Shown here: piece by piece, positions 30,679 through 61,322 of the stretch
Layout of the letters: each line of letters opens with the position of its first letter
How positions within the stretch are numbered: position 1 is the first letter of the stretch
Origin: Promethearchaeia archaeon
Lineage (GTDB): Archaea; Asgardarchaeota; Lokiarchaeia; Sigyniarchaeales; SOKP01
Length of the DNA: 64,000 bases
NCBI GenBank assembly: GCA_046497275.1
Contig: JAWOFX010000054.1
Location: forward strand, 3,880-67,879
Reading direction: 5' to 3'
The notes under the pieces: generated by a model
The model's input: the letters and a program-made list of their open reading frames with translations, nothing else
What the model was told of the DNA's origin: nothing
Database searches by the model: none
Program-made: the position numbers and the translations under genes

Positions 30679-31164
30679 TTATATTCTAGAATCTGATACA
30701 GCAGGTGGCTCAGGAGGTTTATATTTTTCATAGAGTTCATTCATTAATCTATAAAAATCTTTTCTTCTATTTATGTAATGATTTTTATCTTCTTCTTTAT
30801 TTCGATCGACAGAAAGTTTCCATTTTGTTACCTTTGGTTTATCACCTTTCAGTACTAAATTTCCATCTTTATCGCGTTTGTACATCTGAATTTTGATAAC
30901 ACCTTTTTCGGGTTTCGCTGGAATAATTTCATCAATATCACCCCATCTAACCCATTTGCTCTTTCCCATACTATACATTGATGTGCTGAAGCCCGCTTTT
31001 ATTCTCCAAGAGAATCCATTTTCTCCTACAACAATTAAACCATTTTCTTTATCTAATCCGCATTTTGATGTAAGTATAGGTTCACCAACTGGATCTGATT
31101 CCATTATTTTTTCATACATCCCTTGTCGATCGGGAGATAATTCCCATCCATCTAAAAACGGCAT
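30679..31164 (-). CDS. Hypothetical protein (beta-rich core plus C-terminal helix; possibly PH-like fold)
   Basis: 161 aa. No motif recognised. The fold suggestion comes only from the beta-strand pattern followed by the helix RRKDFYRLMNELYEKY. Confidence 0.3.
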   Translation of the reverse strand: MPFLDGWELSPDRQGMYEKIMESDPVGEPILTSKCGLDKENGLIVVGENGFSWRIKAGFSTSMYSMGKSKWVRWGDIDEIIPAKPEKGVIKIQMYKRDKDGNLVLKGDKPKVTKWKLSVDRNKEEDKNHYINRRKDFYRLMNELYEKYKPPEPPAVSDSRI

Positions 31165-38031: not shown

Positions 38032-38077
38032 ATCTTTTTAAATTAGAATTATATAATAATAAAAAAAAATTAGAAAA

Positions 38078-39250: not shown

Positions 39251-39285
39251 GAATTTTATATTACATTTAAATAAGAGGTGATTAA

Positions 39286-40431: not shown

Positions 40432-40436
40432 AAAAA

Positions 40437-42479: not shown

Positions 42480-42557
42480 ATTTATAAAAAATTAAAGAAA
42501 TTTACTTTCTTTTTTTTATATCAGTATTTAATTATTTATTTTTTTTCATATTTTTTA

Positions 42558-44024
42558 CGGTGGTCGGTTAGCCGACATTATTTGTGAATTATCCCACCAC
42601 CCCCATGGATTTTTGCTCCACTCTAAGAAACAACCCTCTAAGGACATCTTGGTTCTGGTTAAGATTCCAGCTGCGAGAGCTCATTTTTCGAGTTCGCTCA
42701 AGTTGAATGCGCTTCCTATTCATTTTCCAAGAGTTATAAAGGAGTATTCGTGCAAGCATATCGAGATATCTTACGTTATCGTGGTTAGATCGCCATCGCC
42801 GATTAATCCGATTTAAGTCGGAAAATCCAGTTTCGATAAGCCATCGACGGCGATAAAAGAGGGATGTGCGGGATGCCCACGAGCTTTCCTTCCCTTTTGG
42901 TTTCTCGGTTGTCATTATCGTAAAAACCCTATGATATGCATCCTTCAAGGAGAGAATCCCTCTCCGAACATCTCTTTTAATACCTCGGAGAGAGAAGCCT
43001 TGTTTTGCCCGTATTATGAGGTTAACATCGCATTTAAATTGTCGCTTTGCTGCGGTAGCAGTAGAAAATGTATACCTTCGCACTCGTCCCGCTTTTCCCT
43101 CCAAGTATTCCTTAATAAATTGTTTAATTTTTTTATATTGTTTCGCAGGCATGAGTACATTGCCGCCTTTTTGTTTTATATCGTCTATCAATTCAGCTCT
43201 ATAAAACTCACGATCCATTAACACATATTTTAATTCAAATCCCAATTCGAGAAGATGAGCCAAAAAGGTTTTGATTATTGGAATCTTAGATTGTCCATTT
43301 GCCACATGCTCCAATCCTGCATAGAGATGAACATTCCGGGAAAGTAATGAAAAACCGAGATAATGACGCATCTTTTTGGTTCCCTTTTGTCGATTAGTAC
43401 CCTTAATCATTTTATCCTCACGAGACCCGAAATATGGATGTTCTGTAAAATCAATTAATACGTTCACCTTTTTTGAGATGAGTTTTGACTTGTATGCTTC
43501 TTTTAATTGTTCATCAAGACATTCACGTAAAAGTTTGCGCGCTTTCTTGATGCCAATTCCGCGTAAATACTTGTTCACTTCGGTTTGGTGTGGAACATAT
43601 CTCTTTTTACGCCCGTCTGAAAAGATTTTCCGTCTTCCCTTTTTATGACTCAGTATGTACGCATTAAGCTGCTCGCTGGTGTCGTGTATGGATCTACCTA
43701 TAATTTCTGAAAAGAAGAATACTCTTAAAAAGTCTGAATCCTCATATTTAGCGTTTTTTGCCCTTTTGACCCGCCATGTGCGAGAGATGACAACATCACA
43801 AAACTTTTTATAAAATGAGAGAATATTATCATTAGAAAGAAGTGATTTGATTCCTAACTTTTGAATAGAAGTAGGAAATATTTCTTGTAATCGCATACAT
43901 GAATATAATCACTTCTTTCTTTTTAATTTTACGGTTATCCATCAGAGGAATAAAATCCTAAAAAATAATGTTTCATAATACCAATTGAGAGGCAGTATTT
44001 CATAGGATGGGCCAGAGACCATCG
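42558..44024 (-). mobile_element. IS4-family-like insertion sequence (boundaries approximate)
   Basis: Visibly higher G+C than its flanks. Single DDE transposase gene. Candidate imperfect terminal inverted repeats cggtggtc (42558-42565) / gaccatcg (44017-44024). No target-site duplication identified. Confidence 0.55.
42589..43896 (-). CDS. DDE transposase, IS4 family-like
   Basis: 435 aa. LIDFTEHPYFG (D), YVLMDREFY (D), YRRRWLIETGFSDLNR (Y-x2-R-x3-E signature). Confidence 0.75.
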   Translation of the reverse strand: MRLQEIFPTSIQKLGIKSLLSNDNILSFYKKFCDVVISRTWRVKRAKNAKYEDSDFLRVFFFSEIIGRSIHDTSEQLNAYILSHKKGRRKIFSDGRKKRYVPHQTEVNKYLRGIGIKKARKLLRECLDEQLKEAYKSKLISKKVNVLIDFTEHPYFGSREDKMIKGTNRQKGTKKMRHYLGFSLLSRNVHLYAGLEHVANGQSKIPIIKTFLAHLLELGFELKYVLMDREFYRAELIDDIKQKGGNVLMPAKQYKKIKQFIKEYLEGKAGRVRRYTFSTATAAKRQFKCDVNLIIRAKQGFSLRGIKRDVRRGILSLKDAYHRVFTIMTTEKPKGKESSWASRTSLFYRRRWLIETGFSDLNRINRRWRSNHDNVRYLDMLARILLYNSWKMNRKRIQLERTRKMSSRSWNLNQNQDVLRGLFLRVEQKSMGVVG

Positions 44025-44185
44025 ACAATAATATGATCTACTTCCTTTGAGACTGTTTATATATTAAGAATGTGAATCAATAATCCGAAATTCAAATCAA
44101 AAGTAAATTATATTAAAATAATTTAAGTATATAACAATAGAAAAAGAAAAAATGATTAAATTAAAATTTATAGTGATCAGAAATA

Positions 44186-45445
44186 ATGATATCTAATGAA
44201 TTAGTGAAAAATAATAAAATTAGGAACATCATTAATACAGATTTTAAAGATACTCTCTTTATTCAACATATAAGAGAAGTTATAAACGATGCGAAAGTAA
44301 AAAATAAGATATATAGAAGATTAATTGAAAATAATAATTTTAATATTGATGATTTGAATAAAATTGAGGATCTTTCTACGATTCCTTATTTGAATGCTTT
44401 TGATTTCAAAGAATCAAATCAAATGTATAAAAAGTTTTTAAAAATTCCTTTCAATTCACCTGAATTTGATTCTTGGAATGTATCTTCTTGTACTTCTGGC
44501 AATCCTTCTTTGGTGGGCAGGTCTAAATATGATAATGAATTATTGGCAAGCATGACTATAAAATGCATTTATGATTTTATACCGATTCCTGAAAATGAGT
44601 GGTTCAATACACTTTCATTTAATTTTGCTCCTAACATCAAATTTTTAAATAGAATCGCTCTTAGATATACTAAAGAGAGACCGGTTAAGTTATATAGTAG
44701 TAATTTGCACAAAATATCCACTCGGATGTCGGATCCTTATTTTTTAGTTAAATTTAAACTGTTAAAAGCTATTAAAGAAATAATCGTTAACAGAAGTTTA
44801 GTTGGGGCATTTAATATCGATTCTAAATTTGTGATTAAAAAAATCAATAAGAATTTAAAAAAACCAGAAGATAAAAGAAAATATGTTTCATTTGGCGGCA
44901 GTCTCCAATTAGTAAATAATTTTATGAACGGATTTTTAGAAGTGAACGGTCTCAGATATAATTTAAAAGATAGTGTAGTTAATTTTGGGGGAGGCGGCTG
45001 GGATGGTCATAAAAGCCAATTAAAATATCCTCCTATAGAAAAAACTAAGTTTGTTAATGATTGTGAGAAATATCTTGGAACGCCCCCCGAAAATATCACA
45101 GATATGTACGGATTTACTGAAACACCTATAGTGTTTGGATCACATTGGTCTGAAAAACGCCAAGATTTCATAATGCATTGCCCACCTCAAGCTAGAATAA
45201 TTATAAGGGATATGAAAACAAAAGATCCTTTAACCAGTCTTGGAGACATTGGTTTTCTTGAAGTGATAACTCCGTTTGGAGTAAATGCATCGCTAAATCA
45301 TGCAATCCTAATTGATGATGTTGTTGAACTTATTTCGAAAAATAGGTGCCCCGAATGTGGATATGAAGGAGATACTTTTAGAGTATTAGGAAGATTAGAA
45401 AATCCTGAAGGGTTAGGATGTTCTTCAATAGTAGAATGGATATAA
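44186..45445 (+). CDS. LuxE-like acyl-protein synthetase / adenylate-forming enzyme
   Basis: SSCTSGNPS (degenerate SSGTTG), NFGGGGWDG (GGGWK-like), MYGFTETP, C-terminal FRVLGRLENPEGLGCS (GR....e.RGCS-like). Paralogue of 52579..53880. Confidence 0.55.
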   Translation: MISNELVKNNKIRNIINTDFKDTLFIQHIREVINDAKVKNKIYRRLIENNNFNIDDLNKIEDLSTIPYLNAFDFKESNQMYKKFLKIPFNSPEFDSWNVSSCTSGNPSLVGRSKYDNELLASMTIKCIYDFIPIPENEWFNTLSFNFAPNIKFLNRIALRYTKERPVKLYSSNLHKISTRMSDPYFLVKFKLLKAIKEIIVNRSLVGAFNIDSKFVIKKINKNLKKPEDKRKYVSFGGSLQLVNNFMNGFLEVNGLRYNLKDSVVNFGGGGWDGHKSQLKYPPIEKTKFVNDCEKYLGTPPENITDMYGFTETPIVFGSHWSEKRQDFIMHCPPQARIIIRDMKTKDPLTSLGDIGFLEVITPFGVNASLNHAILIDDVVELISKNRCPECGYEGDTFRVLGRLENPEGLGCSSIVEWI

Positions 45446-45588
45446 GGAAGTTAATTTTTTTCAAAATAATCTTTTTATTAGATTATTATTTAGTAATACT
45501 AATTTTTAAAGATTCAAATCAAAAATCTTTCCATTCAAATTATTTTATCCAATAGATTTCAAATGATATTAATATTATAAAAAAAAAA

Positions 45589-45906
45589 TTAAGGGCTCCA
45601 ATATCTAATAAACCGCACTAAACCTATAGACATTAGAATTACAGTAAAAATAACTGCAACGGAACATAAAACTAGTCCCACAATTGCAAAAACTTTTTTA
45701 TCATCCCCAGTTATAGCTACTATTCCCATTATATCGCCAAGAACAGCTATTATAAGAACTATGATACCAATGGTGACCGAAAAGATTATTACCATCGGCT
45801 CTCCATAAACTACAGCAGGAATATAAGAAAGAATTCCAATAGTCCATAATATGGCATTTGCAATAATCCCTAATATCATTGAAGCGATACCAAAACCATT
45901 TTCCAT
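45589..45906 (-). CDS. Small membrane protein (3-4 TM)
   Basis: 105 aa, Ile/Gly/Val-rich TM helices. The only minus-strand gene inside the cluster apart from the IS. Confidence 0.45.
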   Translation of the reverse strand: MENGFGIASMILGIIANAILWTIGILSYIPAVVYGEPMVIIFSVTIGIIVLIIAVLGDIMGIVAITGDDKKVFAIVGLVLCSVAVIFTVILMSIGLVRFIRYWSP

Positions 45907-46133
45907 CCATTTTCGCCTTTTTTAATATTCTAACAAAATATTAAAACTCTAAATTATTTTGAATTTTTAAATTTTTTCCTTGCTAAAATCATTTTTTCAT
46001 GATCAATTAATAAAAAAAGTAAAAAAGACTTAAATTAAAAAAAATCTTTTTCTTGCATTTCATTTTATATTTAAGGAATTTATTCTTTTAAAATTGTATA
46101 AAATATATAGATTGTAAAAAAATTGAGTCTTTA

Positions 46134-47276
46134 ATGATAAAAATATCATTTAAACCGAAAAACCAAAAGAATAATGTAATTCCAATTTTGGAATATTATG
46201 GTTATGTTATAGCCAAATTAGTTGATTCATTTTCTCTGTTTTCGACTTTTATTGATAAATTGGAAACATTATATATAAGAAAAACAATTGGTACTATAGA
46301 GATTAATAGCCCAATCTTTATAACTGGAATTCCAAGATCTGGCACAACTATCACTCTTGAAATGTTAGCCAAACATCCTGAAGTAGCTTCTCATAAATAT
46401 AAGCATCTTCTCATGCCTTATATTCCATATTGGTTTAGTAACGCAATAAATAAATTGAAAATTTCTTTAGAACCAACTGAAAGAATACATCAAGATAGAA
46501 TATTCATTAATCAAGATAGTCCGGAAGCTGTAGAAGAGATTTTTTGGCAAAGATTCTTTGAAAATGTTCATAATGAAAGTGATTCAAATATTTTAGACAA
46601 TAATACTAAGAATGAAGAATTCGAAAATTTTTATAAGAATCATATTAAAAAGTTGCTAATAAGTCAAGAATCTTCAAGATATATCGCAAAAAATAATTAT
46701 AATTTAACAAGATTGGAATATTTAATCAAAATTTTTCCAGATGTTAAATTTGTAATACTAATACGTAATCCTATAAATCAAATTGCTTCAATTATTAAAC
46801 AACAAAAATCATTCATTAAAATGGAATCAATCTCACCTCTATTATCAGAGTGGAATAATATTCTTGGCCATCATGAATTTGGAAATCATTCTAGTTTAAT
46901 TAATTTGAATGACTATGAATTAGTTAAAAAAATTAGAAGTTTATTAAAGAATAAAAATTCATATGTAAAAGGATGGGGTTATTATTGGACTTCTCTTTAT
47001 GATCATGTCATGAAAATTATAAAAATTAATAAAAAAGTCAAAAAAGCTAGTTTAATTGTACGATATGAAGATTTATGCGAATCCTCATCATCAACAATCG
47101 ATAAAATCCTTGATCACACCAACCTACCACATGAGCAGTTTGATCATACGAAAAAGTATTATGTTAGATGTCTAGAGAAACCTTCTTATTATAAACCACA
47201 TTTTTCGGATATAGAAATTGAAAATATATTAAAAATCACAAGACCAACAGCGAAAAAATATGGATATCAATTATAA
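46134..47276 (+). CDS. Sulfotransferase family protein (PAPS-dependent type)
   Basis: 5'-PSB-like loop ITGIPRSGTTITLEML and 3'-PB-like RNPINQIAS. Confidence 0.65.
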   Translation: MIKISFKPKNQKNNVIPILEYYGYVIAKLVDSFSLFSTFIDKLETLYIRKTIGTIEINSPIFITGIPRSGTTITLEMLAKHPEVASHKYKHLLMPYIPYWFSNAINKLKISLEPTERIHQDRIFINQDSPEAVEEIFWQRFFENVHNESDSNILDNNTKNEEFENFYKNHIKKLLISQESSRYIAKNNYNLTRLEYLIKIFPDVKFVILIRNPINQIASIIKQQKSFIKMESISPLLSEWNNILGHHEFGNHSSLINLNDYELVKKIRSLLKNKNSYVKGWGYYWTSLYDHVMKIIKINKKVKKASLIVRYEDLCESSSSTIDKILDHTNLPHEQFDHTKKYYVRCLEKPSYYKPHFSDIEIENILKITRPTAKKYGYQL

Positions 47277-47457
47277 TATTCTCTTCGATTTTAATTTCTA
47301 TAATGGCTTATTCCAAGTCTTAAATTATTAGAAATAGTATCAATTCGTATAAAAAGCTATAGCATTTTAATAATTCTCCCAAATTAAAGAGCTTAAAATT
47401 TTTATGTATGTAATAATATTTTAAAATATTTAGTTAATAATCTAAAGGAAACTGAAT

Positions 47458-48921
47458 TTGAAAAAATATAATATACTATTTATCCACCCCCCAATCAATT
47501 CCAGCTCGATTCAAGATGAAAGTCCTCATAAAAGACGCGGAAATTATATATTTATTCCCATGGGCGTTTTTGCTATCGCTGACCTATTGGAAAGAGAGGG
47601 TTTTAGTGTCAAAATAATAAATTTTCCTTTAGAGAAATTCCTTAATTCTAAATGGAATTTAAAAGATTTTTTAAAAAACCTTGATTTCGATATTTGCGCA
47701 ATTGATCTACATTGGATCCACAATTCTTACGGTGCTTTATATATTTCTAAGGTAGTTAAAGAAATTGATAAAAATATCAAAGTAATTTTTGGAGGTTATA
47801 GTGCTTCATATTTCCATAAACAGATTTTGAAATATTATCAAACAGTAGATGGAATTATTAGAGGAGATGGTGAAATTCCATTTTTAGAATATACTAGATG
47901 CCATCTAAGAAACAAAAATTTTGATAAAGTTCCAAATTTGACTTATAGAAATTCATCAGGCATGATAAAAGTTAATCCAATTTCCTATATTGCAAAATCT
48001 TTAGAAGATTTAAATTTTTCTAATATATCTTTAATGCACAATGCGGAGTCATATTTAAATAATAGCAGAAAAATTATGGGAATATCTTATAATGTTTCTG
48101 TTGGAAGAGGTTGTCCATTTAATTGTCCGTTTTGTGCAGGAGGAAAAAAGGCTCAAGAAAAATATTCTTGTCGAACAGAGGTAATTCTAAGGAATCCACG
48201 AAGAGTTGTTGAAGATATTTTATTTATTTATCATAATTATAATATTGATAATTTCTTTTTTGGACATGGAACTTATCCAAAAACCCTTAAGTACTGGGAG
48301 AAATTGTTTTCTATTATCAGAGAAGAAAATATCGATATTTCTGCTGATTTAGAAATTTGGAGATTACCATTTCCTAAAAAAATGGTTCAGAGTTTTTATG
48401 AGACATTCAATAATAAAAAATCTTCGTTAAGTATCTCCCCAAGAACAATCTCTTCTTCTGTCCAGAAGAAAATTGCGAAATTAGATGATCCAACATTTAT
48501 TTTCAGAAAAAGTGAAATTTTCAAGCTTATTGAAGACACAATTCAATACCGAATCCCATTAAGAATATGGTTGACAATTGGATTTCCTTTTCAAAATAGA
48601 AGAGAAATTATAAAAGATATTATGTTTGCTATAGAATGTGTATTAAAGTATGGAAAATCGAAAAAAAATCCTATAGCAATTATGAGTGAACCGTACTTTA
48701 TATTCCCAGGCTCCCCCGTATTTGAGGATCCTGAAAAATATGGAATTAAATTAAAATTAACTAATTTTCCTGAAATTGTAAATGCATTTAAGAATTCTAA
48801 AATTTCATTTTTTTATAACTTGACAAATTATGATAATAAATATTTTTCAAGTAATTTTATAAGAAAATTGAATCTGCTATTTTTCTTAATTGTAGCACCA
48901 ATGTTCCTTACAAGTGGTTAA
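47458..48921 (+). CDS. B12-binding-domain radical SAM protein
   Basis: TTG start. N-terminal Rossmann-like domain (ICAIDLHW...VIFGGYSAS), then VSVGRGCPFNCPFCAG. Confidence 0.7.
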   Translation: MKKYNILFIHPPINSSSIQDESPHKRRGNYIFIPMGVFAIADLLEREGFSVKIINFPLEKFLNSKWNLKDFLKNLDFDICAIDLHWIHNSYGALYISKVVKEIDKNIKVIFGGYSASYFHKQILKYYQTVDGIIRGDGEIPFLEYTRCHLRNKNFDKVPNLTYRNSSGMIKVNPISYIAKSLEDLNFSNISLMHNAESYLNNSRKIMGISYNVSVGRGCPFNCPFCAGGKKAQEKYSCRTEVILRNPRRVVEDILFIYHNYNIDNFFFGHGTYPKTLKYWEKLFSIIREENIDISADLEIWRLPFPKKMVQSFYETFNNKKSSLSISPRTISSSVQKKIAKLDDPTFIFRKSEIFKLIEDTIQYRIPLRIWLTIGFPFQNRREIIKDIMFAIECVLKYGKSKKNPIAIMSEPYFIFPGSPVFEDPEKYGIKLKLTNFPEIVNAFKNSKISFFYNLTNYDNKYFSSNFIRKLNLLFFLIVAPMFLTSG

Positions 48922-49091
48922 AAATAAGTTATTCTAGATTGATTTTTTTAATTTTATTCAAATTAATCAAAATCAAAATATCTTCCAAGAAGTTTAAATT
49001 TATTCTAAAATTTTAAATTAAAATCTATTTTTAGATTATTAAAAGATTTTTTGATCTTAATTACATTTAAATATATCATAAATGAATTTCA

Positions 49092-50492
49092 ATGAAACTA
49101 ACAGTAGCAACTAATTGGGATTACAATTTAATTGATGAATTAGTAAAATATCCAGTTTCAGATTTGTATGGAGTTGCACAAGAAAGCCCGGTTGGTGGAG
49201 GACGTCCTTCATTTCTATTAACATCAATCTCTAAAAAAAAAATAGAAAAATATATCAAAGAGGTTCATAATAAGGGTATGAAATTTTCATATCTTCTTAA
49301 TGCACCTTGCATGGGCAATATGGAATATAATAAAGAATATCATAAACTATTAATCAAATATATCCAATGGATAAGCGATATCGAGGTAGATAGTGTAATT
49401 GTTACCATTCCGTTTTTGATTCAAGTCATCAAAAAACAATTTCCAGAATTAAAAATACGCGTTTCTACAATTGCAACCGTTAATAGTATTAATCGAGCAA
49501 AATTTTATGAGATGCTTGGAGCCGATGAGATCACTCCTGATGTCATGATAAATCGAGATTTTAAAACATTAAAAAATATCCAAAAGGCAACTAATTGTAA
49601 AATCGTGTTATTACTAACTGATGGTTGTTTATACCAATGCCCTTTTAGATTATATCATTATAATCTTTTAGGTCACGCATCTCAAACAAATAACGAGATT
49701 GGGCAAAACTATATTGATACTTGCATTTTAAACTGTAGCATTATTAAATATTCTGATCCTGCAGAAGTTTTAAAAGCAAGGTGGATCCGTCCTGAAGATC
49801 TTTCTCATTATATGGAAATCGGAATAGATCATTTTAAAATCGCAGGAAGGCGTATGTCTACACCATGGATTCTTAGAGCAGTTAAAGCTTTCTCATCTCA
49901 AAAATATAATGGGAATCTAGTAGATATTATTCAAGGATTTTCAATGTCATTTGGTGGTTTAGAACAGAAAGATCCCAATTTAAGCTTGAGAAAAACCATA
50001 GGAGAAGAGTCTAAATCCAAATTATATATTGACAATACAAAATTAGATGGCTTTATAGATTTTTTTAAAAACCAAAATTGTATATCTATGTGTGATCAAT
50101 GCGATTATTGTGAAAAATGGGCAAATAAAGCAGTAAGATTAGATCCTGAAAAGTCTTCTAATTATTTAAAATCTCTTAAAGCATATCTTGATGATATCAT
50201 AACAAGCAGAGAATTTGGACTAAAAACTTCAGAAAGCAAAGAAGAAATAAAAAAGGGCATGAACTGGAATTCTAAAACAGAACAACTTTTCAATGAATTA
50301 ATCAATTTGACTCCATCCCAATTTAGGTCTATGGCAAAAGTAGCTATATCCTCGGTTGCTGAAGAGAATGCTAGAAAGAGAAAATCTAATGAAGTTATGA
50401 ATCAAGATATGATAAAAGCATTCATAGAGGGTACTCCAGGACCTTTTCAAGATGATATGAAGAAGGGACTTAAAAAATTTAATCTCATATAA
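49092..50492 (+). CDS. U32-like Fe-S TIM-barrel protein with Cys4 motif and C-terminal PCP_red-like module
   Basis: MKLTVATNWDYNLIDEL...GGGRPS...VIVTIPFLIQVIKKQFPELKIRVSTIATVNS...LLLTDGCLYQCPFRLYHYN. CISMCDQCDYC motif. Shared module at 50259-50489 (MNWNSKTEQLFNELINLTPSQFR...). Confidence 0.6.
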   Translation: MKLTVATNWDYNLIDELVKYPVSDLYGVAQESPVGGGRPSFLLTSISKKKIEKYIKEVHNKGMKFSYLLNAPCMGNMEYNKEYHKLLIKYIQWISDIEVDSVIVTIPFLIQVIKKQFPELKIRVSTIATVNSINRAKFYEMLGADEITPDVMINRDFKTLKNIQKATNCKIVLLLTDGCLYQCPFRLYHYNLLGHASQTNNEIGQNYIDTCILNCSIIKYSDPAEVLKARWIRPEDLSHYMEIGIDHFKIAGRRMSTPWILRAVKAFSSQKYNGNLVDIIQGFSMSFGGLEQKDPNLSLRKTIGEESKSKLYIDNTKLDGFIDFFKNQNCISMCDQCDYCEKWANKAVRLDPEKSSNYLKSLKAYLDDIITSREFGLKTSESKEEIKKGMNWNSKTEQLFNELINLTPSQFRSMAKVAISSVAEENARKRKSNEVMNQDMIKAFIEGTPGPFQDDMKKGLKKFNLI

Positions 50493-50712
50493 ATTGAAAA
50501 CAATTTTTTTAAGATTTAATTTCTTTTAGTTCCACTTAGATTATCGTAAACAAGAAATCTTTAAATAGATTCATTATAACTCCAATTTCATAAGTAAAAT
50601 CTAAGAGATATAATTCCATAAATTAAAATTCTAAAACTTTATAAATAATTTCTTATAACAAATCATATAATTACTGATATTTAATATATTAAAATTTTTA
50701 ATTGGTATAAAG

Positions 50713-51504
50713 ATGTTTAAGTTCAATTTTAGGAGAATTCAATCATCTAATTTCCTTGGATTTAAATTGATTTTTACATTAATACTGATTAGCATTTTTG
50801 TTCCTTTATCTCTAGTAATTTTCTATTTTTTTGATGCTATTAATTATAAGGCATTAATTTTTGATTTTAGTAACGAATTCAAATCTCTTAATTATTTAAA
50901 TTTCTTTAAAAGTGTTCTACTTATTAATCCCTTTAAGAACACGGAGATTTTTTTTATATTTATAACAATATTGCTAAATTTAATTTTTGTGTGCATTGTT
51001 ATAGCAATAATAGAATCAAGCATTTTTTTTTACATTTGGGAAGCATGTATGGAGGATTTAGATTTTTACGTCCCATATAATTCCAAAGAAGAACATGAAA
51101 TGCCTTATGACCCATTTTTAAATCAAGAAGAAAATAATATGAAAAAAATATCTGAATCAAACAACTTTTTCGGTATAATACCATTAAAAAATTTTAATAA
51201 GAACCGAAATCATAATCTATTTTATTATGAAAATCATCTAATTAAAAAAACAAAAATTTTATTAACAAAACCCAAACAACTCCAAGATTCTTTAAGGAAA
51301 ATATCAATAAAAAGAAAAAAAAGATTTTCTTATAATTCAAATTCAAACTTTCTAATCCTTATTTTCTATATTTTTAATTCCTTACCTTTTAATTACCCAA
51401 TAAAATCTCATTTTAAAGAATCTTCATTTAATAAAGAGGGAAATATCTTCAATCTAAAATTTAGGATAAATTATGATTTCAGATTTGAATTTTTAAATAT
51501 ATGA
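50713..51504 (+). CDS. Phe/Asn/Lys-rich membrane-associated hypothetical protein; paralogue of 32972..33730
   Basis: 263 aa. Same composition and architecture, and collinear blocks with 32972..33730. Confidence 0.4.
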   Translation: MFKFNFRRIQSSNFLGFKLIFTLILISIFVPLSLVIFYFFDAINYKALIFDFSNEFKSLNYLNFFKSVLLINPFKNTEIFFIFITILLNLIFVCIVIAIIESSIFFYIWEACMEDLDFYVPYNSKEEHEMPYDPFLNQEENNMKKISESNNFFGIIPLKNFNKNRNHNLFYYENHLIKKTKILLTKPKQLQDSLRKISIKRKKRFSYNSNSNFLILIFYIFNSLPFNYPIKSHFKESSFNKEGNIFNLKFRINYDFRFEFLNI

Positions 51505-51529
51505 AAAAAAAAATAATTGAAAAAAATAG

Positions 51530-52480
51530 TTGAATAAAAAAATGTTTGCAATAATATTTGAATTGATTTTTCCATTGGCACTAATTGGAATCTTGATAAT
51601 TATATTCATAAAGGGAATCTTTACTAAAGCTGAGGAACGAGATTATATGACATTCGATGAATTTATTAAAGATTGGATCAGAGATCATGGTGTAGAGCAT
51701 AAGCTTGAACCATACTTTGAATCAATGAAGAAAAATCCTGCGGGAAAATTATATATGCCGATAACATATAAGTGGGGAAAATTTTTCAGTAAACTGGGAG
51801 TATCAGCAAATGAGGTCTCTATTATTAATTTGACATTATCTTTTCTTGGCTTTTATGGTGTAATTATGGCTGGGAGAGGACATCTATTAAATTATCTGAC
51901 TCGGCAACCTGCTTTCGGATCTTGGTTTATTGTTCTTGGTATTATATTTTTAGTTGCGGGAATAATAGATGGAGCAGATGGCGCAATCGCTAGATTAGAA
52001 AATACCAAGTCGGCGTCTGGTGCTTGGTTTGATAATAATATTGATAGAATCAGCGATATATTGATGTTGGTATGCTTGATACCTGGAGGACTCTCAATAA
52101 TACCAGAATACAACTATGATTTTAGATGGCTTGTGTGGACAAATGTATTATTAATCTTTATTTATGAATATATGAGAGCCAGACATCAAGGTTTAGGATT
52201 ACATGCATTACAACCAACCATAGGCGAGAGAATTTCTAGGATAATAATAATTTCTACGTTTTTCTTTATTTATGGAATCTCTAGTTTTTCGGTTTTCATA
52301 ACGTACTTAATAAACCCTTCCTTAACTTCTCTCTGGTCGGTTTCTCATAGTGGAATTATAAACTGGGTTATGATAATACATCAAATTGCTCTGCTTTTAG
52401 TAATGATTATCTCAGTGATTCGCACTATAATATTCGTATGGAAAAACTTAAAAAAAATGGACGAGAGTGAGAATAATTAG
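51530..52480 (+). CDS. CDP-alcohol phosphatidyltransferase family protein
   Basis: TTG start. Exact family signature DG-x2-AR-x8-G-x3-D-x3-D in IIDGADGAIARLENTKSASGAWFDNNIDRISD. Polytopic membrane protein. Confidence 0.85.
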   Translation: MNKKMFAIIFELIFPLALIGILIIIFIKGIFTKAEERDYMTFDEFIKDWIRDHGVEHKLEPYFESMKKNPAGKLYMPITYKWGKFFSKLGVSANEVSIINLTLSFLGFYGVIMAGRGHLLNYLTRQPAFGSWFIVLGIIFLVAGIIDGADGAIARLENTKSASGAWFDNNIDRISDILMLVCLIPGGLSIIPEYNYDFRWLVWTNVLLIFIYEYMRARHQGLGLHALQPTIGERISRIIIISTFFFIYGISSFSVFITYLINPSLTSLWSVSHSGIINWVMIIHQIALLLVMIISVIRTIIFVWKNLKKMDESENN

Positions 52481-52578
52481 AAGAAAAGAAGGGTTATTAA
52501 GAAAATTATTTAATTATTTTATTTTTTTGATTTTTTTTAAAACTTTAAATAAATTAATAATTAGAGGTTAGTCTGAAA

Positions 52579-53880
52579 TTGTTATTTAAATTTGAAGATT
52601 ATTTACCTGACGAATTAAAAGAAAAATATTTTGATTTTTCTCCACGTAATTATTCGGACGAGGAATTCTATAATGCTTTATTAACTCAAATTAAGAAATC
52701 ATTTGAAAATTGTAAATTATATAGAGATGTTATTTGTAAAAGATTTGACTACTCAATCCCAGATGAAATTAATGCCGATGACTTAGAAAAAATTCCTTAT
52801 ATCAATACAAATTTGTTTAAAAAAATAAATAAAAACGTTTTGAACCTTATGAAAGTCCCTCCCGAGGAGATTGCATTATTTTCTTGTTCTTCCTCTACAT
52901 CTGGAGATCCCTCAATAATGCCGCGCACTTTAGAAGATTTTGATCAGATTCAATATAATTCTATCAAAGTATTTACTGAATTTTTTAGATGGAAAAGCTT
53001 AACGAAGGATGGGAAAAAACCCCTCGTTTTTAATTTTGCCCCGAGTCGGCATATGATGTCATTTATGGCTAAAAAGAATGCAAAAGGATTTAAATATCTT
53101 GAAAAAACACGATATTTTTCAGCTTGTATGAATAAACCTTGGGAATATCTTGGACATGAAGAATATTTAGTGAAAGTGAAAATATTGAAAACATTATGGG
53201 CTATCATCTCTACATTTTCAGCTAGAGGAGGATTCGTGTTAGATATATCAAAAATGTTGAAAATGATTGAGAAAGTCTTAGATAAAGGATCTTATAAAAA
53301 TATGGAAATAAGTACAATTATTTTCGGAGGAAGTCCCTTATTGATGAATAATATGTTCGAGAACCGATTGTTAAAAGAGAATAAATTCTACAATCTTCAA
53401 GATATTGGATTTGCAGGTTGTGGTGGAGGAGGTTGGGATGGTGTAAAAGGAGAGGCAAAGATGGATTCAGTAAATAAATCTAAATTTATTGGATATTTCG
53501 AAAAAGTATTCAATATGAAACATGAAAATATCGCAGATATTTATGCATTTACAGAATCACCAACGCTATTCGGTGCTCATTGGTCTGAAAAATATCAAGA
53601 TTTCTTATATCATTGTCCTAACACATCTCGAATCATCGTGAGAGATATAAAATCATTACAACCTGTTAATATTGGACAAGAGGGGTTACTTGAAGTTATT
53701 ACTCCTTATGGAGTGAATGGAGCTGTAAATCAAGCAATGCTCGTGGATGATATAGTAGAAATAGTATCCGCTGATAAATGTTCAGAATGTGGCTATCAAG
53801 GTGCTACTTTTAGAGTTTTAGGAAGGTTAAAAAACTTAAAAGGTGAGAGTTGTTCTTCTTTGATAGATTGGCTACATTAA
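52579..53880 (+). CDS. LuxE-like acyl-protein synthetase / adenylate-forming enzyme
   Basis: TTG start with GAGGT RBS. CSSSSTSGDPS, GCGGGGWDG, IYAFTESP, FRVLGRLKNLKGESCS. Collinear with 44186..45445. Confidence 0.55.
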   Translation: MLFKFEDYLPDELKEKYFDFSPRNYSDEEFYNALLTQIKKSFENCKLYRDVICKRFDYSIPDEINADDLEKIPYINTNLFKKINKNVLNLMKVPPEEIALFSCSSSTSGDPSIMPRTLEDFDQIQYNSIKVFTEFFRWKSLTKDGKKPLVFNFAPSRHMMSFMAKKNAKGFKYLEKTRYFSACMNKPWEYLGHEEYLVKVKILKTLWAIISTFSARGGFVLDISKMLKMIEKVLDKGSYKNMEISTIIFGGSPLLMNNMFENRLLKENKFYNLQDIGFAGCGGGGWDGVKGEAKMDSVNKSKFIGYFEKVFNMKHENIADIYAFTESPTLFGAHWSEKYQDFLYHCPNTSRIIVRDIKSLQPVNIGQEGLLEVITPYGVNGAVNQAMLVDDIVEIVSADKCSECGYQGATFRVLGRLKNLKGESCSSLIDWLH

Positions 53881-54019: not shown

Positions 54020-54628
54020 TCAAATAATAAAGAATCCATAGGAAAAATTTATAAAACCGATGGAAATTAGACTTCTTATTAATCCTAAAGATGAAAGACC
54101 TAATGTAATTAAACTTAAAATAAGACCTAATATTAACAAATTGCTACCCTTTTCTTCGTCAATATCGTATGGGGTCAATCTTCTTGCTTTACTGCTATAT
54201 GATTTTGAAATTATCGCAAAAATCAATCCAAGGACAGAAAATAACAAGGAAAAACCTGAAAATATTATTCCTAAAGCTGGGATTTCTGGTAAGATATATC
54301 CATACATCCAATTTCTGTAAAGTTTGATACCACTCAATCCAATACCTATCCCTGATAGCACAACTGATGCTATTGCATAAGACAAACATTTCCTACCAAG
54401 GCTGGAGGCTTGAATTTCTTCTTTCTTTGGTATAGTATTATAATCTTTTGGTTTTATTTCGTGATGTTCTTTTTTTTCATATTTATCAAATTCTTTCGAT
54501 TGAGTTTCCTTAATCTTATAAGGATATTCCTCATGGCTAAAGATTTCTGTTCCACAATTTTGACAATATCTTTGATAGTCACTTTCTAATTTAGAACCAC
54601 ATATAGGACAATACATTTTACTGTTCAC
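54020..54628 (-). CDS. Zinc-ribbon membrane protein (family member 1 of 3)
   Basis: N-terminal MYCPICGSKLESDYQRYCQNCGTEI, charged linker, C-terminal multi-TM domain. Confidence 0.6.
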   Translation of the reverse strand: MNSKMYCPICGSKLESDYQRYCQNCGTEIFSHEEYPYKIKETQSKEFDKYEKKEHHEIKPKDYNTIPKKEEIQASSLGRKCLSYAIASVVLSGIGIGLSGIKLYRNWMYGYILPEIPALGIIFSGFSLLFSVLGLIFAIISKSYSSKARRLTPYDIDEEKGSNLLILGLILSLITLGLSSLGLIRSLISIGFINFSYGFFII

Positions 54629-54887
54629 ATTATTTTATCAAATGGTATATTAAATATTATTTAAGTTTACGACTTATTAATCTTACTCCTTCATAAAGCT
54701 TTTAAGCATAATGGAAATCAATTAATTTATAACCCCACTTTTTTATAATCATATGGTTCTACTAAGTCAAAAGTAGTTTTATTCCAATTCTTTTAAATTT
54801 ATAATTGCTCTATGTTTTTCAGATGTAAAAAAATATAGTAATATTAAGGTAAAAAAATAAAAAAGATAATTTTTGTATTAAAAAATC

Positions 54888-55523
54888 TTATATAAATGGA
54901 AATAATGTACCTAAGTCAATCAATACAATAATAGCTAATATTATTCCAATAAGGGCTAGTGCTAATGCCATTACATTCATTATAATACCAAATATAGCAA
55001 GAGTACTTCCTACTTGTTCAATTACATTTTTTGGTTCTGATTTATTCGCTTCCTTACTATAACCTCTAGAGGATGATGCAAATATCAATCCAGGAATAGA
55101 TAATCCCAGAGAAATACTTGAAAGAATTATACCTAAAATAGGACGTGGAGAACTGCTTCTAATAATTAAAACAGTAAATCTACCTACTCCAAATCCAATT
55201 GAAACTCCAAAAAATGCTAAAGATACAATTGCAAATATTAAACATTTTTTAGAATATTCACCCGCCTCACCTTCTTCTTTCGGTGATTCAGCACTATAAT
55301 CGACAGTTTTTGCTTTTGGTTCCTCAGGTTGAGTAATTGGCTCTTCTAGTTCAGTTTCCTTAGCGGGTGGTTTATCATCTTCAATAGGAGACGGCTCTGG
55401 TTCATCAGTTACAATTGGCGTTTCGCTGGGAATAACAATTTCAGATCCACAATTCTGACAAAATTTTTGATTTTCGCTTTCTAATTCCGCTCCACACATT
55501 GGACAATACATACGAATATTCAC
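54888..55523 (-). CDS. Zinc-ribbon membrane protein (family member 2 of 3)
   Basis: MYCPMCGAELESENQKFCQNCGSEI, Pro/Glu-rich linker, TM domain. Upstream region conserved with member 3. Confidence 0.6.
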   Translation of the reverse strand: MNIRMYCPMCGAELESENQKFCQNCGSEIVIPSETPIVTDEPEPSPIEDDKPPAKETELEEPITQPEEPKAKTVDYSAESPKEEGEAGEYSKKCLIFAIVSLAFFGVSIGFGVGRFTVLIIRSSSPRPILGIILSSISLGLSIPGLIFASSSRGYSKEANKSEPKNVIEQVGSTLAIFGIIMNVMALALALIGIILAIIVLIDLGTLFPFI

Positions 55524-55697
55524 ACTATTTTTTTAAAATTCTGATTAATTATAATATAATTTAGATGTTAATCTATTTAATTTTACGTGTAATTGTAATT
55601 TTTAAGACAATATTAGATCCCTAAAATAGAGAAAAATACTTTTTTGTTAATTTAGATTTGTAAAAAAAGAAAAGAAAAAATTTTTTATTTAAAAAAA

Positions 55698-56315
55698 TTA
55701 AGGGAATATGCCTAAACCTATAAGTATACTAATTACAGCAAGTATAGAAAGCCCTGTAACTACAACTGTCATTATTATCCCTATTATATTCAATACCAAA
55801 CCCACTATAGCAAGAGAACTTCCAACTTTTTCAACTGTGTTATCTGGATCTAACTCTGATGCTTTTTTACTAATTTTTCTCGATGAAGTAGCAAATATTA
55901 AGCCAATTATAGATAATATTAAAGTTATAACTGTAAAAACTAATCCTAAAATCGGATAATATGACCCACCTGAAGTAATCCTCTCTCCTCTGAATGATAT
56001 CATTCCAGAATATATTCCAAAAATTATAATCGAAATTATAGCGTATGCAAGACATTTACCTGCATAATTGCTTGCTAAATCCTTTTCTTCTGGTTTTTGA
56101 GAACTATAATCTTTAGTTGTTATTTCAGATTCTTTATCTTCTATAGATGGTTCTTCAGGCTTAGTTTCCTTAATTTTTGGTGCTGGTTCTTCAGTCGACG
56201 ATGGTTCAGTTTTTTCAATTTGCGTTTCACTGGGGTTAATAATTTCAGATCCGCAGTTCTGACAGAATTTTTGATCTTCACTTTCTAATTTCGCTCCACA
56301 CATTGGACAATACAT
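55698..56315 (-). CDS. Zinc-ribbon membrane protein (family member 3 of 3)
   Basis: MYCPMCGAKLESEDQKFCQNCGSEI, Pro/Glu-rich linker, TM domain. Confidence 0.6.
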   Translation of the reverse strand: MYCPMCGAKLESEDQKFCQNCGSEIINPSETQIEKTEPSSTEEPAPKIKETKPEEPSIEDKESEITTKDYSSQKPEEKDLASNYAGKCLAYAIISIIIFGIYSGMISFRGERITSGGSYYPILGLVFTVITLILSIIGLIFATSSRKISKKASELDPDNTVEKVGSSLAIVGLVLNIIGIIMTVVVTGLSILAVISILIGLGIFP

Positions 56316-57578: not shown

Positions 57579-57703
57579 TTTTTTATTATTTAGTGATGTT
57601 AATTAAAATTTAGTTGAATTTAAAGAATAATAATTTAATAATAAATCTAATTTATTATTATTAAGATTAGCTTATTAAAGATTTATTTAATCTCAGAGAA
57701 ATT

Positions 57704-58468: not shown

Positions 58469-58514
58469 ATATTAATCATAAATTTTTACAAAAACTACAA
58501 TCAATACTAATTTT

Positions 58515-59267: not shown

Positions 59268-59399
59268 GTGAGAATATTTAAAAAATGAAGATTTTAAATA
59301 AATATCAACCTTTTATATGGGATTAAGATTAATTTATATATCTTTTGGATAAAACAAAATATTAATAAAACCTTAAAATATCTTTAAAATATCATAAGC

Positions 59400-61189: not shown

Positions 61190-61322
61190 TAATATTTCAA
61201 TATATTTTAAATATACTTAAGGTAAAAACCAACAATAGAATAAATAGTTCTATTCTATACGAAATAGTAACAAATATAAGATGAATTTTTCTTATTTTTA
61301 ATAAAAAGAAGGATTAATTTCT

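Follow-up and report, generated by a model that had tools for sequence, protein, structure and literature searches.

The region at positions 44186 to 53880 of the window (the whole 64,000-nucleotide stretch of Promethearchaeia archaeon DNA that was analysed, its source being an Asgard archaeon of Lokiarchaeia type) is not a self-contained module and comprises two separable gene sets in an arrangement associated with an insertion sequence (IS). The reading we favor, with moderate confidence, is that it represents a lineage-specific rearrangement within a conserved locus of Asgard archaea, the most likely role of which is to make a membrane-anchored, decorated glycoconjugate (a phospho-glycolipid or a lipid-linked glycan). 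A literature search found no earlier description of this Asgard locus, and its anatomy was derived from comparison with about 120 related loci. Every ORF and motif that an earlier note had named in the region was found where that note had placed it, the motifs by regular expression and the families by Pfam and NCBIfam searches (Table 1). In the NCBIfam searches of the cluster proteins, every equivalog model scored under its threshold. The genes are spaced by 26 to 690 bp and include one ORF on the opposite strand, such that a single operon is not evident.

Table 1. Features of the locus in the window, with the matches that define them
Feature	Position	Strand	Basis
161-aa protein, conserved partner of B12a	30679..31164	-	no Pfam/NCBIfam match
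B12a, HpnJ/BchE-like B12-binding radical-SAM enzyme	31341..32780	+	Pfam B12-binding + Radical_SAM
mem1, membrane protein, first gene of translocated D-module segment	32972..33730	+	no Pfam match
Two radical-SAM/SPASM paralogues	33785-35149, 35161-36585	+	Pfam Radical_SAM + SPASM
B12b, B12-binding radical-SAM enzyme	36616..38031	+	TIGR04072 287 bits (cut-off 360); BzaD 203 bits
ABBA-type aromatic prenyltransferase	38078..39250	+	PF11468 1e-47, residues 95-378; N-terminal D domain, residues 1-85
Divergent U32-like protein	39286-40431	+	27% identical to U32c (49092) over 295 residues; 4 invariant Cys in common
U32/D domain/SCP2 fusion	40437-42479	+	Pfam U32 + SCP2
IS element, ISH3-like	42546..44036	-	transposase ORF 42589-43896; DDE_Tnp_1 7e-13
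LuxE1, LuxE-family acyl-protein synthetase, clade A	44186-45445	+	PF04443 48.7 bits
105-aa four-TM ORF	45589..45906	-	no family match; in 0.6-kb window-only segment 45446-46057
PAPS-type sulfotransferase	46134..47276	+	Sulfotransfer_3 PF13469 4.5e-24
B12c, TIGR04190-like B12-binding radical-SAM enzyme	47458..48921	+	TIGR04190 229 bits (cut-off 500)
U32c, U32 TIM-barrel iron-sulfur protein, C-terminal D domain	49092..50492	+	Peptidase_U32 PF01136 1.4e-14
mem2, 263-aa membrane ORF, lineage-specific	50713..51504	+	no family match
CDP-alcohol phosphotransferase	51530..52480	+	CDP-OH_P_transf PF01066 37.2 bits (cut-off 22); ~6 TM segments
LuxE2, LuxE-family acyl-protein synthetase, clade C, core of locus	52579-53880	+	PF04443 72.0 bits
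Three paralogous zinc-ribbon membrane proteins	54020..56315	-	Zn_Ribbon Pfam matches
Hexapeptide acyltransferase	56487-57578	-	Pfam/NCBIfam
GT2	57704-58468		Pfam/NCBIfam
NodB-type polysaccharide deacetylase	58515-59267		Pfam/NCBIfam
Glucose-1-phosphate cytidylyltransferase	59400-60158		Pfam/NCBIfam

The conserved core and its LuxE-family enzymes

The conserved core of the Asgard-wide locus consists of the CDP-alcohol phosphotransferase and LuxE2, the orthologues of which are 58 to 70% identical in Loki-, Thor-, Hermod-, Hod-, Hel-, Odin-, and Heimdallarchaeota. Elsewhere among the Asgard genomes, these two genes are separated by a 450-residue membrane GT2 of the PgaC/NodC type, and further glycan genes lie alongside. 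Within the 39 loci of the LuxE2 clade, the membrane GT2 is found in 35, the CDP-alcohol enzyme in 32, the hexapeptide transferase in 24, the small GT2 in 20, and the deacetylase in 16. The conserved sugar genes that flank the core run on beyond 53880 in the window (56487 to 60158). The membrane GT2 is absent from the window and from its sister lineage, where only a 99-bp gap is present, and the pathway may hence have changed or partly decayed here. No nearby gene encodes a LuxC-like protein or any other obvious acyl acceptor.

Between LuxE2 and the sugar genes lies a variable slot, the content of which differs among genomes. It may hold the sulfotransferase (11/39 loci, with orthologues 49 to 54% identical), one to three B12-radical-SAM enzymes, zinc-ribbon membrane proteins (a family that recurs here after LuxE2, in 19/39 loci), or the whole set of genes that we call the D-module; alternatively, it is filled by a second LuxE paralogue of varying clade.

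The two LuxE-like proteins are true LuxE-family paralogues that have kept the acyl-accepting C-terminal cysteine. Both exceed the Pfam cut-off for PF04443 (24.9 bits), and they are collinear with each other and 39% identical over 419 residues (E 2e-78). Among solved structures, their closest relative is LuxE 7xc6_E (E 7e-15), which they match end to end by profile. The motifs SSCTSGNPS/SSSTSGDPS, GGGGWDG, FTETP/FTESP, and GRLENPEGLGCS/GRLKNLKGESCS were confirmed by regular expression; the C-terminal GxGCS aligns with the LuxE motif of the acylated Cys364 (for this motif and the mechanism of LuxE, see PMC9157457) and the GR with the catalytic Arg354/355. The pair had been seen as bracketing the distal half of a cluster. 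This bracket is specific to the present lineage, as none of the 33 other LuxE1-clade loci contains any cluster family and LuxE1 orthologues sit elsewhere; in other words, LuxE1 was recruited to the locus only here.

Rearrangement of the D-module

The D-module comprises B12c, a membrane protein, two radical-SAM/SPASM enzymes, B12b, the ABBA prenyltransferase, a U32 protein with or without SCP2, and U32c. Five of its enzymes have in common a rare helical D domain of 80 residues, which in each of the SPASM enzymes is N-terminal (residues 1 to 82); identity between the two is 47%, and to their orthologues 69 to 77%. U32c has eight conserved cysteines and 687 homologues across Asgard phyla, and its AF2 model (pLDDT 83) matches the U32 structure 5d88 (E 5e-10). 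The earlier note had counted it as the third U32-like protein, but with the divergent protein at 39286 there are four. B12b is closest to TIGR04072, described as a "lipid biosynthesis B12-binding/radical SAM protein," and B12c, for which TIGR04190 is the best NCBIfam match, combines a B12-binding with a radical-SAM domain and carries a CPFNCPFC motif. The mem1 family is located between B12c and the first SPASM gene in more than 20 loci (family HMM score of mem1, 208 bits). This HMM does not detect mem2, which is conserved only in the sister lineage; the two Phe-rich ORFs, once taken for one family present in both halves, are thus not detectably homologous.

Canonically, the D-module operon begins with B12c and ends with U32c, and it is constantly embedded in the Asgard locus (the order B12c-mem-SPASMa occurs in L051, L068, L069, L088, L091, L094, and others). 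Within the window, the module's internal part (32972 to 42479) stands between B12a and LuxE1 with the IS at its end, so that B12c and U32c have become neighbors in the "distal half." Given the canonical order, this looks like an IS-associated translocation. The IS, present as a single copy in the window, scores 104 bits against the ISH3 model NF033541 (cut-off 225) and has candidate inverted ends of 20 nt that are 80% complementary. No target-site duplication was found; the junction is identical in three assemblies.

Contigs of the sister lineage are collinear with the window at 80 to 92% nucleotide identity, save for three window-only segments (32777-44146, 45446-46057, and 48926-50372), the IS lying at the 3' edge of the first. 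The sister lineage keeps the order B12a-LuxE1-sulfotransferase-B12c-mem-CDPOH-LuxE2 and has no IS. It has lost the D-module, including U32c, and retained the rest; a decayed 3' remnant of U32c shows that a deletion took place there. The distal half therefore does not hold together as the single module that had been proposed, since U32c and usually B12c canonically belong to the upstream radical-SAM/ABBA/U32 operon. B12a, in turn, belongs with the LuxE gene set, being kept in the sister lineage directly 5' of LuxE1 (contigs L086/L087). Its best NCBIfam match is HpnJ (148 bits, under the cut-off), and orthologues of the 161-residue protein (47 to 49% identity) lie divergently beside B12a orthologues in L038, L048, and L054.

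The question of whether the two halves also occur together in related genomes lacking the IS can be answered in the affirmative for many of them. In every contig that reaches beyond the D-module, the latter adjoins LuxE2, the CDP-alcohol enzyme, the membrane GT2, the sulfotransferase, or the hexapeptide transferase, and this linkage exists without the IS in L051, L052, L061, L068, L069, L072, L076, L081, L091, L094, L098, L102, L104, L117, and L121. The LuxE2/CDP-alcohol core is found without the D-module in 31/39 loci as well as in the sister lineage, indicating that its function is independent of the D-module enzymes. Growth of the cluster by modular duplication, as suggested earlier, is at odds with the identities of LuxE1/LuxE2, U32SCP2/U32c, and B12a/b/c: paralogues are 22 to 39% identical, whereas each is 55 to 73% identical to its own orthologues across Asgard phyla, so all these splits are ancient. 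B12-radical-SAM enzymes do occur in both halves, three in all, but they are mutually only 22 to 26% identical and fall in different subfamilies.

Proposed product and rival explanations

In the glycoconjugate pathway that we favor, the CDP-alcohol enzyme, working at the membrane, would link a CDP-activated partner to an alcohol through a phosphodiester, after which glycosyltransferases may extend the product and the deacetylase may free an amine. The LuxE-type enzymes would adenylate a carboxylic acid, bind it in thioester linkage to their own C-terminal cysteine, and transfer it to the head group, without CoA and without a LuxC reductase. The sulfotransferase might add sulfate from PAPS and the B12-radical-SAM enzymes might methylate unactivated carbons. 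The D-module may have as its substrate a hydrophobic and probably prenylated moiety that SCP2 domains would hold; a hydrophobic substrate is suggested by the fusion of SCP2 to U32 here and to additional radical-SAM enzymes in other genomes.

The same genes could be read as producing an aromatic lipid that is prenylated, hydroxylated anaerobically, and C-methylated, for example a membrane cofactor resembling a quinone or phenazine. A LuxE-type enzyme would then activate an aromatic or acyl acid precursor, consistent with the likeness of the LuxE-like N-terminal parts to phenylacetate-CoA ligase; the ABBA enzyme, with its strong family match, would prenylate it, the B12-radical-SAM enzymes would methylate it, and the CDP-alcohol enzyme and sulfotransferase would modify the polar end. 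Hydroxylation without O2 might fall to the U32 and SCP2 proteins, as in the UbiU/UbiV/UbiT system (PMC6747719), the composition of which is mirrored by the U32-like protein at 39286 together with the adjacent U32/SCP2 fusion, and more broadly by three to four U32 proteins whose Fe-S cysteines are conserved; the SCP2-fused radical-SAM enzymes of other genomes would also fit. However, the UbiU and TrhP equivalog scores are far under the cut-offs, the constant neighbors of the core are sugar enzymes, and the core so often lacks the D-module that we consider this route unlikely.

Less probable still is a RiPP-like modification of a ribosomal peptide or membrane protein, in which the SPASM enzymes would crosslink, the B12-radical-SAM enzymes methylate, the ABBA enzyme prenylate, and the LuxE-like enzymes acylate or ligate a substrate recognized by the D domain. 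SPASM enzymes with an extra N-terminal domain and several B12-radical-SAM enzymes are typical of RiPP clusters, and mem1, poorly conserved and directly 5' of the SPASM pair, has a conserved C-terminal "HLPSKNN...EG" patch. Tyrosine sulfation could be envisaged too: the sulfotransferase carries the PAPS loops GIPRSGTT and RNPINQIAS, its 5'-PSB and 3'-PB loops align to those of TPST1/2, and these protein-tyrosine sulfotransferases are its nearest solved relatives, so that a protein or peptide substrate would fit. Yet no conserved small precursor ORF was seen, two AF2 models show the D domain as entirely helical, which sets it apart from the PqqD-type recognition element with its winged helix, lipid-binding SCP2 domains are fused to D-module enzymes, and the constant neighbors are glycosyltransferases and the CDP-alcohol enzyme. 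We give very little credence to the notion that two functionally unrelated clusters were joined by the IS through chance; the IS exactly at the boundary, the presence of one gene set without the other in the sister lineage, and the unlinked LuxE1 orthologues would all agree with it, but it is contradicted by the recurrent linkage of the D-module to core and glycan genes in genomes without the IS.

The head-group tailoring that the earlier note had proposed, with a membrane-anchored, possibly sulfated conjugate as its predicted product, is plausible and in part borne out. In other Asgard genomes, the sulfotransferase, B12-radical-SAM enzymes, second LuxE paralogue, and CDP-alcohol enzyme recur beside glycosyltransferases, a NodB-type deacetylase, and an acetyltransferase, which makes an anchored, possibly sulfated and acylated conjugate reasonable. 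Likewise, luxE genes are known from a bacterial glycan island (PMC7874193). The CDP-alcohol enzyme carries DGAIARLENTKSASGAWFDNNID at residues 150 to 172 (by regular expression); its identity as an archaetidylinositol-phosphate synthase was considered and rejected (67.9 bits against an NCBIfam threshold of 180). The assumed transfer of an alcohol onto a CDP-activated lipid is just one of two possible directions, since the closest solved relatives of this enzyme, AF2299 and DIPPS, use soluble CDP-inositol and not a CDP-lipid.

LuxE-family proteins and the locus around LuxE2

Two proteins of the window, LuxE1 and LuxE2, belong to the LuxE family, scoring 48.7 and 72.0 bits, respectively, against PF04443 (gathering cut-off, 24.9), and are collinear and 39% identical. 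The ORFs named in the earlier note were all recovered on the + strand at the positions tabulated below, as were, by regular expressions, all the motifs that it had quoted, including DGAIARLENTKSASGAWFDNNID in the CDP-alcohol enzyme. The best solved relative of a profile of 31 Asgard LuxE-like sequences is LuxE (PDB 7xc6_E; E, 7e-15), with both halves covered and the alignment reaching LuxE residue 365 of 373; resemblance to PaaK is limited to the N-terminal 100 residues. Cryo-EM of the LuxC-LuxE complex has revealed that LuxE is without the ANL C-terminal subdomain and has instead a short C-terminal motif, TRxxKGCxLS, of which Cys364 is the acylated residue, and that Lys238 and Arg355 are essential (PMC9157457). 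In LuxE1 and LuxE2, too, the alignment has a short C-terminal motif with the acyl-accepting Cys in place of this subdomain. The Asgard GRxxxxxGxGCS falls on R354/R355 and G-C364-S of LuxE, and R403 and C412 are invariant across the 31 sequences, which indicates, at the level of sequence, that the Asgard proteins are acyl-enzyme-forming LuxE relatives and not CoA ligases. An invariant K276 sits four residues past the W of GGGW; the catalytic Lys238 of LuxE directly follows this W.

All 31 aligned Asgard proteins also carry an invariant CxEC pair ~20 residues ahead of the acyl-accepting Cys. Bacterial LuxE has 'APDP' aligned at this segment and lacks the Cys. The pair may form a metal or redox site.

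In a distance-based tree, the LuxE-like proteins form four clades, A (with LuxE1), B, C (with LuxE2), and D. Clades A and C often occur together in one MAG, and the LuxE1/LuxE2 duplication is therefore old. LuxE2 orthologues are 58 to 70% identical and were found in all Asgard phyla sampled. Every homologue of LuxE1, LuxE2, and U32c (687 for the last) comes from Asgard archaea, namely, Promethearchaeota/Lokiarchaeia and Thor-, Hermod-, Hod-, Hel-, Odin-, and Heimdallarchaeota MAGs.

The genomic context was assessed at 79 loci anchored on LuxE relatives, all on MAG or metagenome contigs, by mapping the window proteins onto them and clustering all ORFs. A membrane GT2 of 450 aa with a QxxRW motif (best NCBIfam matches, PgaC/IcaA, NodC, and HpnI) lies directly upstream of LuxE2 in 35 of the 39 clade-C loci, preceded by the CDP-alcohol enzyme, which is present in 32. 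Recurrent further members are a hexapeptide acyltransferase (24/39), a small GT2 (20/39), a second membrane GT2, a radical-SAM protein, and a NodB-type deacetylase (16/39 each), an alpha/beta hydrolase (15/39), UDP-galactopyranose mutase (12/39), and a sulfotransferase (11/39). No LuxC- or ALDH-type family was among the recurrent neighbors within +/-10 kb at these 39 loci. In the window, a hexapeptide transferase, a small GT2, a deacetylase, and a glucose-1-phosphate cytidylyltransferase follow just beyond 44186-53880. The membrane GT2 is absent between the CDP-alcohol and LuxE2 genes in the window and in a sister lineage, where a 99-bp spacer remains (52480-52579). The slot between LuxE2 and the downstream sugar genes varies in content by genome and may hold zinc-ribbon membrane proteins, a sulfotransferase, three tandem B12-binding radical-SAM (B12-rSAM) enzymes, a further LuxE from clade B or D, B12a together with the 161-aa protein that accompanies it, or a whole D-module, the operon described below.

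Conserved partners of LuxE1, on the other hand, were sought without success: its orthologues have differing, unrelated neighbors (nitroreductase, amidohydrolase, ABC permeases), and cluster genes of the window occur at none of the 33 other clade-A loci. Hence, the two LuxE-like genes that the earlier note took to bracket a module at 44186-53880 do not form a conserved bracket.

Two side observations concern the downstream genes. Five paralogous small proteins of the window combine a zinc ribbon (N-terminal in three, C-terminal in two) with a membrane domain, and the family recurs after LuxE2 in other Asgard genomes in variable copy number, up to five. The cytidylyltransferase, which would make CDP-glucose, scores 291.7 bits against TIGR02623 (cut-off, 300.25). 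It is encoded ~7 kb from the CDP-alcohol enzyme, the nearest structurally solved relatives of which take soluble CDP-alcohols as donors, and may be its putative donor supplier.

Coordinates of features in the window and in related Asgard loci (L numbers)
Feature	Sequence	Coordinates	Remark
Hydantoinase/acetone-carboxylase-like genes	window	17673-22556	alpha, beta, gamma subunits
B12a	window	31341-32780	B12-rSAM
mem1	window	32972-33730	membrane protein
B12b	window	36616-38031	B12-rSAM
Divergent U32-like ORF	window	39286-40431	
IS	window	42546-44036 (-)	
IS transposase ORF	window	42589-43896 (-)	
LuxE1	window	44186-45445	
Sulfotransferase	window	46134-47276	
B12c	window	47458-48921	B12-rSAM
U32c	window	49092-50492	
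mem2	window	50713-51504	
CDP-alcohol enzyme	window	51530-52480	
LuxE2	window	52579-53880	
Zinc-ribbon paralogues	window	54020-56315, 60301-61886	
Sugar genes	window	56487-60158	
Glucose-1-phosphate cytidylyltransferase	window	59400-60158	
CxEC pair, LuxE1	window	~45347-45358	residues 388-391
CxEC pair, LuxE2	window	~53779-53790	residues 401-404
D domain	window	33785-34039, 35161-35415	rSAM-SPASM enzymes
D domain	window	38078-38332	ABBA prenyltransferase
D domain	window	41691-41960	U32-SCP2
D domain	window	50256-50489	U32c
Window-only segment	window	32777-44146	mem1 to U32-SCP2 + IS
Window-only segment	window	45446-46057	small membrane ORF
Window-only segment	window	48926-50372	U32c
Decayed U32c 3' end	L086	13905-14070	sister lineage
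Membrane GT2	L081	8512-9864	
mem1 orthologues	L051	18625-19308	
	L076	9605-10285	
rSAM-SCP2 extra genes	L095	6826-9943	
	L103	7983-9491	
	L105	544-3581	
	L106	6906-8411	

The D-module and its separation from the LuxE2 locus

An ABBA-anchored metagenome scan yielded a canonical D-module order of B12c, mem, SPASMa, SPASMb, B12b, optional rSAM-SCP2 fusions, an ABBA prenyltransferase, a divergent U32 protein with U32-SCP2 or free SCP2, and lastly U32c. In the canonical arrangement, zinc-ribbon genes and convergent LuxE2-GT2-CDP-alcohol enzyme genes follow, and every contig reaching past the D-module operon carries genes of the LuxE2 locus.

Five window enzymes, two rSAM-SPASM proteins, the ABBA enzyme, U32-SCP2, and U32c, share the 80-residue D domain (consensus, W..e..lf....P..fR...kp....Ae.....R.....v...D...a.f..tP.aFqp). 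Two AF2 models predict it to be all-helical, and no solved structure matches it significantly, the histone-fold-like Foldseek matches being weak and not significant. It is weakly similar to DUF2621/PCP_red (Pfam), and we found no literature on DUF2621. Of 1.84 billion cluster representatives, 237 match this rare domain, which often stands alone (80 to 100 aa) or is fused to SCP2, rSAM-SPASM, or U32 proteins. It may be a docking domain; a PqqD-type RRE was rejected, given that the fold is all-alpha and there is no PqqD match.

In other D-modules, B12b and ABBA are separated by one or two additional genes of ~500 aa, absent from the window, that encode a radical-SAM core with a C-terminal SCP2 lipid-binding domain. 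The mem1 family, always directly upstream of the rSAM-SPASM pair, has a conserved two-TM N terminus, a variable middle, and a semiconserved patch, 'HLPSKNN..FS.......EG', that ends the protein; mem1 could be a scaffold or a substrate.

The contigs of the sister lineage, L086 and L087, are collinear with window 24067-57539 at 80 to 92% nucleotide identity (LuxE1, 88%; LuxE2, 93% identical), except for three segments found only in the window. The sister type is represented in ERZ27257072 and JGI 3300007533. The sister retains B12a-LuxE1-sulfotransferase-B12c-mem2-CDP-alcohol enzyme-LuxE2, and the genes that it misses are exactly the D-module minus B12c. The two gene sets are therefore separable, and U32c belongs functionally with what the earlier note called the proximal half. 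A decayed U32c 3' end with stop codons lies past B12c in the sister ('ETFIEGLQDFS*' versus 'KAFIEGTPGPFQ' in the window), so that U32c was lost there by deletion. This remnant speaks directly for removal of the D-module in the sister and against its gain in the window.

The window itself is identical to part of GCA_051746095.1, and the U32SCP2-IS-LuxE1 junction is present in three independent assemblies and thus is not an assembly artifact. The IS is a single copy within the window. Its transposase passes DDE_Tnp_1 and is ISH3-like (104 bits versus a cut-off of 225), and its ends carry a candidate 20-nt inverted-repeat pair, 80% complementary; no clear target-site duplication was found. No gene is truncated (U32-SCP2, 680 aa versus 683 in the related locus L081; LuxE1, 419 aa versus 419 to 420 in orthologues). 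Since placing 32972-42479 between B12c and U32c restores the canonical order, the window is best read as a translocation of this segment, whose 3' edge carries the IS. Either the canonical order is ancestral, and the sister underwent one deletion and the window lineage one translocation, or the window order is ancestral, and the sister underwent two deletions.

Elsewhere in the window, the hydantoinase/acetone-carboxylase-like genes have a G+C content of 36 to 37%, versus ~28% in the rest, and may be a horizontally acquired island, as judged from composition. Rfam and tRNA scans of the window gave no matches.

Enzyme families and the proposed product

All functional statements rest on family-level similarity, and every equivalog model scores below threshold. 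The CDP-alcohol enzyme passes PF01066 (37.2 bits; cut-off, 22), with DGx2ARx8Gx3Dx3D at residues 150 to 172 and six hydrophobic windows, and scores 67.9 bits against the archaetidylinositol-phosphate (AIP) synthase equivalog NF040950 (cut-off, 180). The sulfotransferase belongs to Sulfotransfer_3 (PF13469, 86.4 bits; cut-off, 27), and its PAPS loops, GIPRSGTT at residue 65 and RNPINQIAS at residue 211, both align to TPST1. B12c has the features of class B radical-SAM enzymes, an N-terminal B12-binding domain (51 bits; cut-off, 32.1) and a CxxxCxxC core (CPFNCPFC at residue 219), with a Radical_SAM Pfam score (27.8 bits) slightly below the cut-off of 29.5 and 229 bits against the Ta0216-type equivalog TIGR04190 (cut-off, 500). 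U32c is predicted by Foldseek to share the fold of the U32 structure 5d88 (E, 5e-10). The 13 sequences compared, from the three U32 groups, share four invariant cysteines (C73, C179, C183, and C215), and equivalog scores are under the cut-off for UbiU (17.8 versus 440 bits) and TrhP (33.7 versus 534 bits). To the three U32-like ORFs counted earlier, a fourth, divergent one must be added, which is 27% identical to U32c and shares the four invariant Cys. Its Pfam matches are all below threshold. It directly precedes the U32-SCP2 fusion, an arrangement that resembles a UbiU/UbiV pair with UbiT fused on.

The earlier proposal of activation and head-group tailoring is consistent with the glycosyltransferases, deacetylase, acetyltransferase, and sulfotransferase around LuxE2 and the CDP-alcohol enzyme. 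The data do not support the distal half as a unit, as the sister lost U32c together with proximal genes and kept the rest. Neither do they support growth by modular duplication: the LuxE duplication is old, the three B12-rSAMs are separate subfamilies only 22 to 26% identical to each other, and the two Phe-rich membrane ORFs, previously taken for one family, have no homology detectable by HMM. Chance juxtaposition by the IS was likewise rejected, since the linkage recurs elsewhere.

As the product, we propose a membrane-anchored glycoconjugate with a head group that would bear sulfate, methyl groups, and an acyl group delivered through a LuxE thioester. Fusion of SCP2 to U32 and, elsewhere, to rSAM enzymes argues that the D-module handles a hydrophobic substrate. 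The alternative that the D-module makes a RiPP is weakened by these fusions, by the D domain being all-alpha, and by our finding no conserved small ORF for a precursor; nor was a PqqD-type winged-helix element found. A quinone-like prenyl-aromatic pathway is a serious rival for the D-module, in keeping with its UbiTUV-like U32/SCP2 proteins and ABBA enzyme, but it leaves the core unexplained, because the core occurs without the D-module in most genomes. A more far-reaching scheme, which we advance with low confidence and regard as rather unlikely, is a phylum-wide, previously undescribed Asgard pathway to a new class of membrane conjugate, in which a phospho-glycosyl head group would be acylated via a LuxE-type thioester without CoA, ACP, or LuxC, and then sulfated and C-methylated. 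In D-module genomes, the hydrophobic part would be prenylated and O2-independently hydroxylated by an ABBA/U32-SCP2/radical-SAM metabolon joined by the new 80-residue helical domain, which would serve in docking.

No known organisms are closer relatives of eukaryotes than the Asgard archaea, and to our knowledge very little has been learned about their membrane and cell-surface chemistry. The locus, conserved in all Asgard phyla sampled, unites kinds of enzymes that have not been seen in combination before. Its LuxE-type acyl-enzyme synthetase, without LuxC, is accompanied by a CDP-alcohol transferase paralogue of the inositol-phosphate type, a sulfotransferase, numerous B12-radical-SAM enzymes, anaerobic hydroxylases resembling UbiTUV, and an ABBA prenyltransferase with a new domain. 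A description of it was not found in the literature covered, itself incomplete, on Asgard archaea or Lokiarchaeota combined with radical SAM, prenyltransferase, U32, SCP2, LuxE, or ABBA. The window and its sister are a natural pair with and without the D-module, so that the contribution of the D-module is directly testable by comparative lipidomics or glycomics.

Likeness to known systems

With LuxE of the LuxC-LuxE fatty-acid reductase, the Asgard proteins share a passing Pfam LuxE score, end-to-end alignment, the ANL-type P-loop (SSxTSGxPS), GGGW, the conserved Arg, and the C-terminal Gly-Cys-Ser. Unlike lux LuxE, they are ~50 residues longer, have no LuxC reductase, LuxD, or luciferase nearby, and were found only in Asgard MAGs, where they lie beside the CDP-alcohol enzyme and glycosyltransferases. 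luxE genes also occur in flagellin glycosylation islands of Aeromonas, where a lipo-sugar is suspected (PMC7874193). The CDP-alcohol enzyme resembles AIP/PIP synthases, AF2299, and IPCT-DIPPS in its DGx2ARx8Gx3Dx3D motif and polytopic topology (best NCBIfam match, AIP synthase; best solved relatives, AF2299 and DIPPS). It differs from these enzymes in an ~85-residue N-terminal extension and is a dedicated paralogue within a glycan locus, not a housekeeping lipid synthase.

The D-module is reminiscent of UbiT/UbiU/UbiV, the O2-independent ubiquinone hydroxylase, in its paired U32 proteins with four conserved Cys and an SCP2 lipid-binding domain, although the UbiU similarity is low (17.8 bits); a U32-SCP2 fusion is known also in Zymomonas. 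In contrast to UbiTUV, an additional CX3CX2CX2C cluster is present in U32c and U32SCP2, as is the D domain, the genes lie amid rSAM and ABBA enzymes, and the host is an anaerobic archaeon not known as a quinone maker. Like the archaeal lipid-modifying radical-SAM enzymes (Tes, Grs, Gms, and GDGT methylases), the locus has enzymes of the B12-rSAM and of the SPASM-rSAM class; the nearest family to B12b is 'lipid biosynthesis B12-binding/radical SAM', whereas SPASMb weakly matches Tes, with no family threshold reached. Here, however, the rSAMs carry fused D or SCP2 domains, and their genes cluster with those for the ABBA and U32 enzymes. Finally, the locus follows the same logic as Nod-factor synthesis (NodC, NodB, NodA, NodH/NoeE, and NodL), with a membrane GT2 (QxxRW), a NodB-type deacetylase, an acyl-transfer step, a PAPS sulfotransferase, and a hexapeptide acetyltransferase, an analogy only, as all matches are weak. 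NodA is absent from the Asgard locus and the NodC-like GT2 from the window, whereas the CDP-alcohol enzyme and the rSAMs are without a Nod counterpart.
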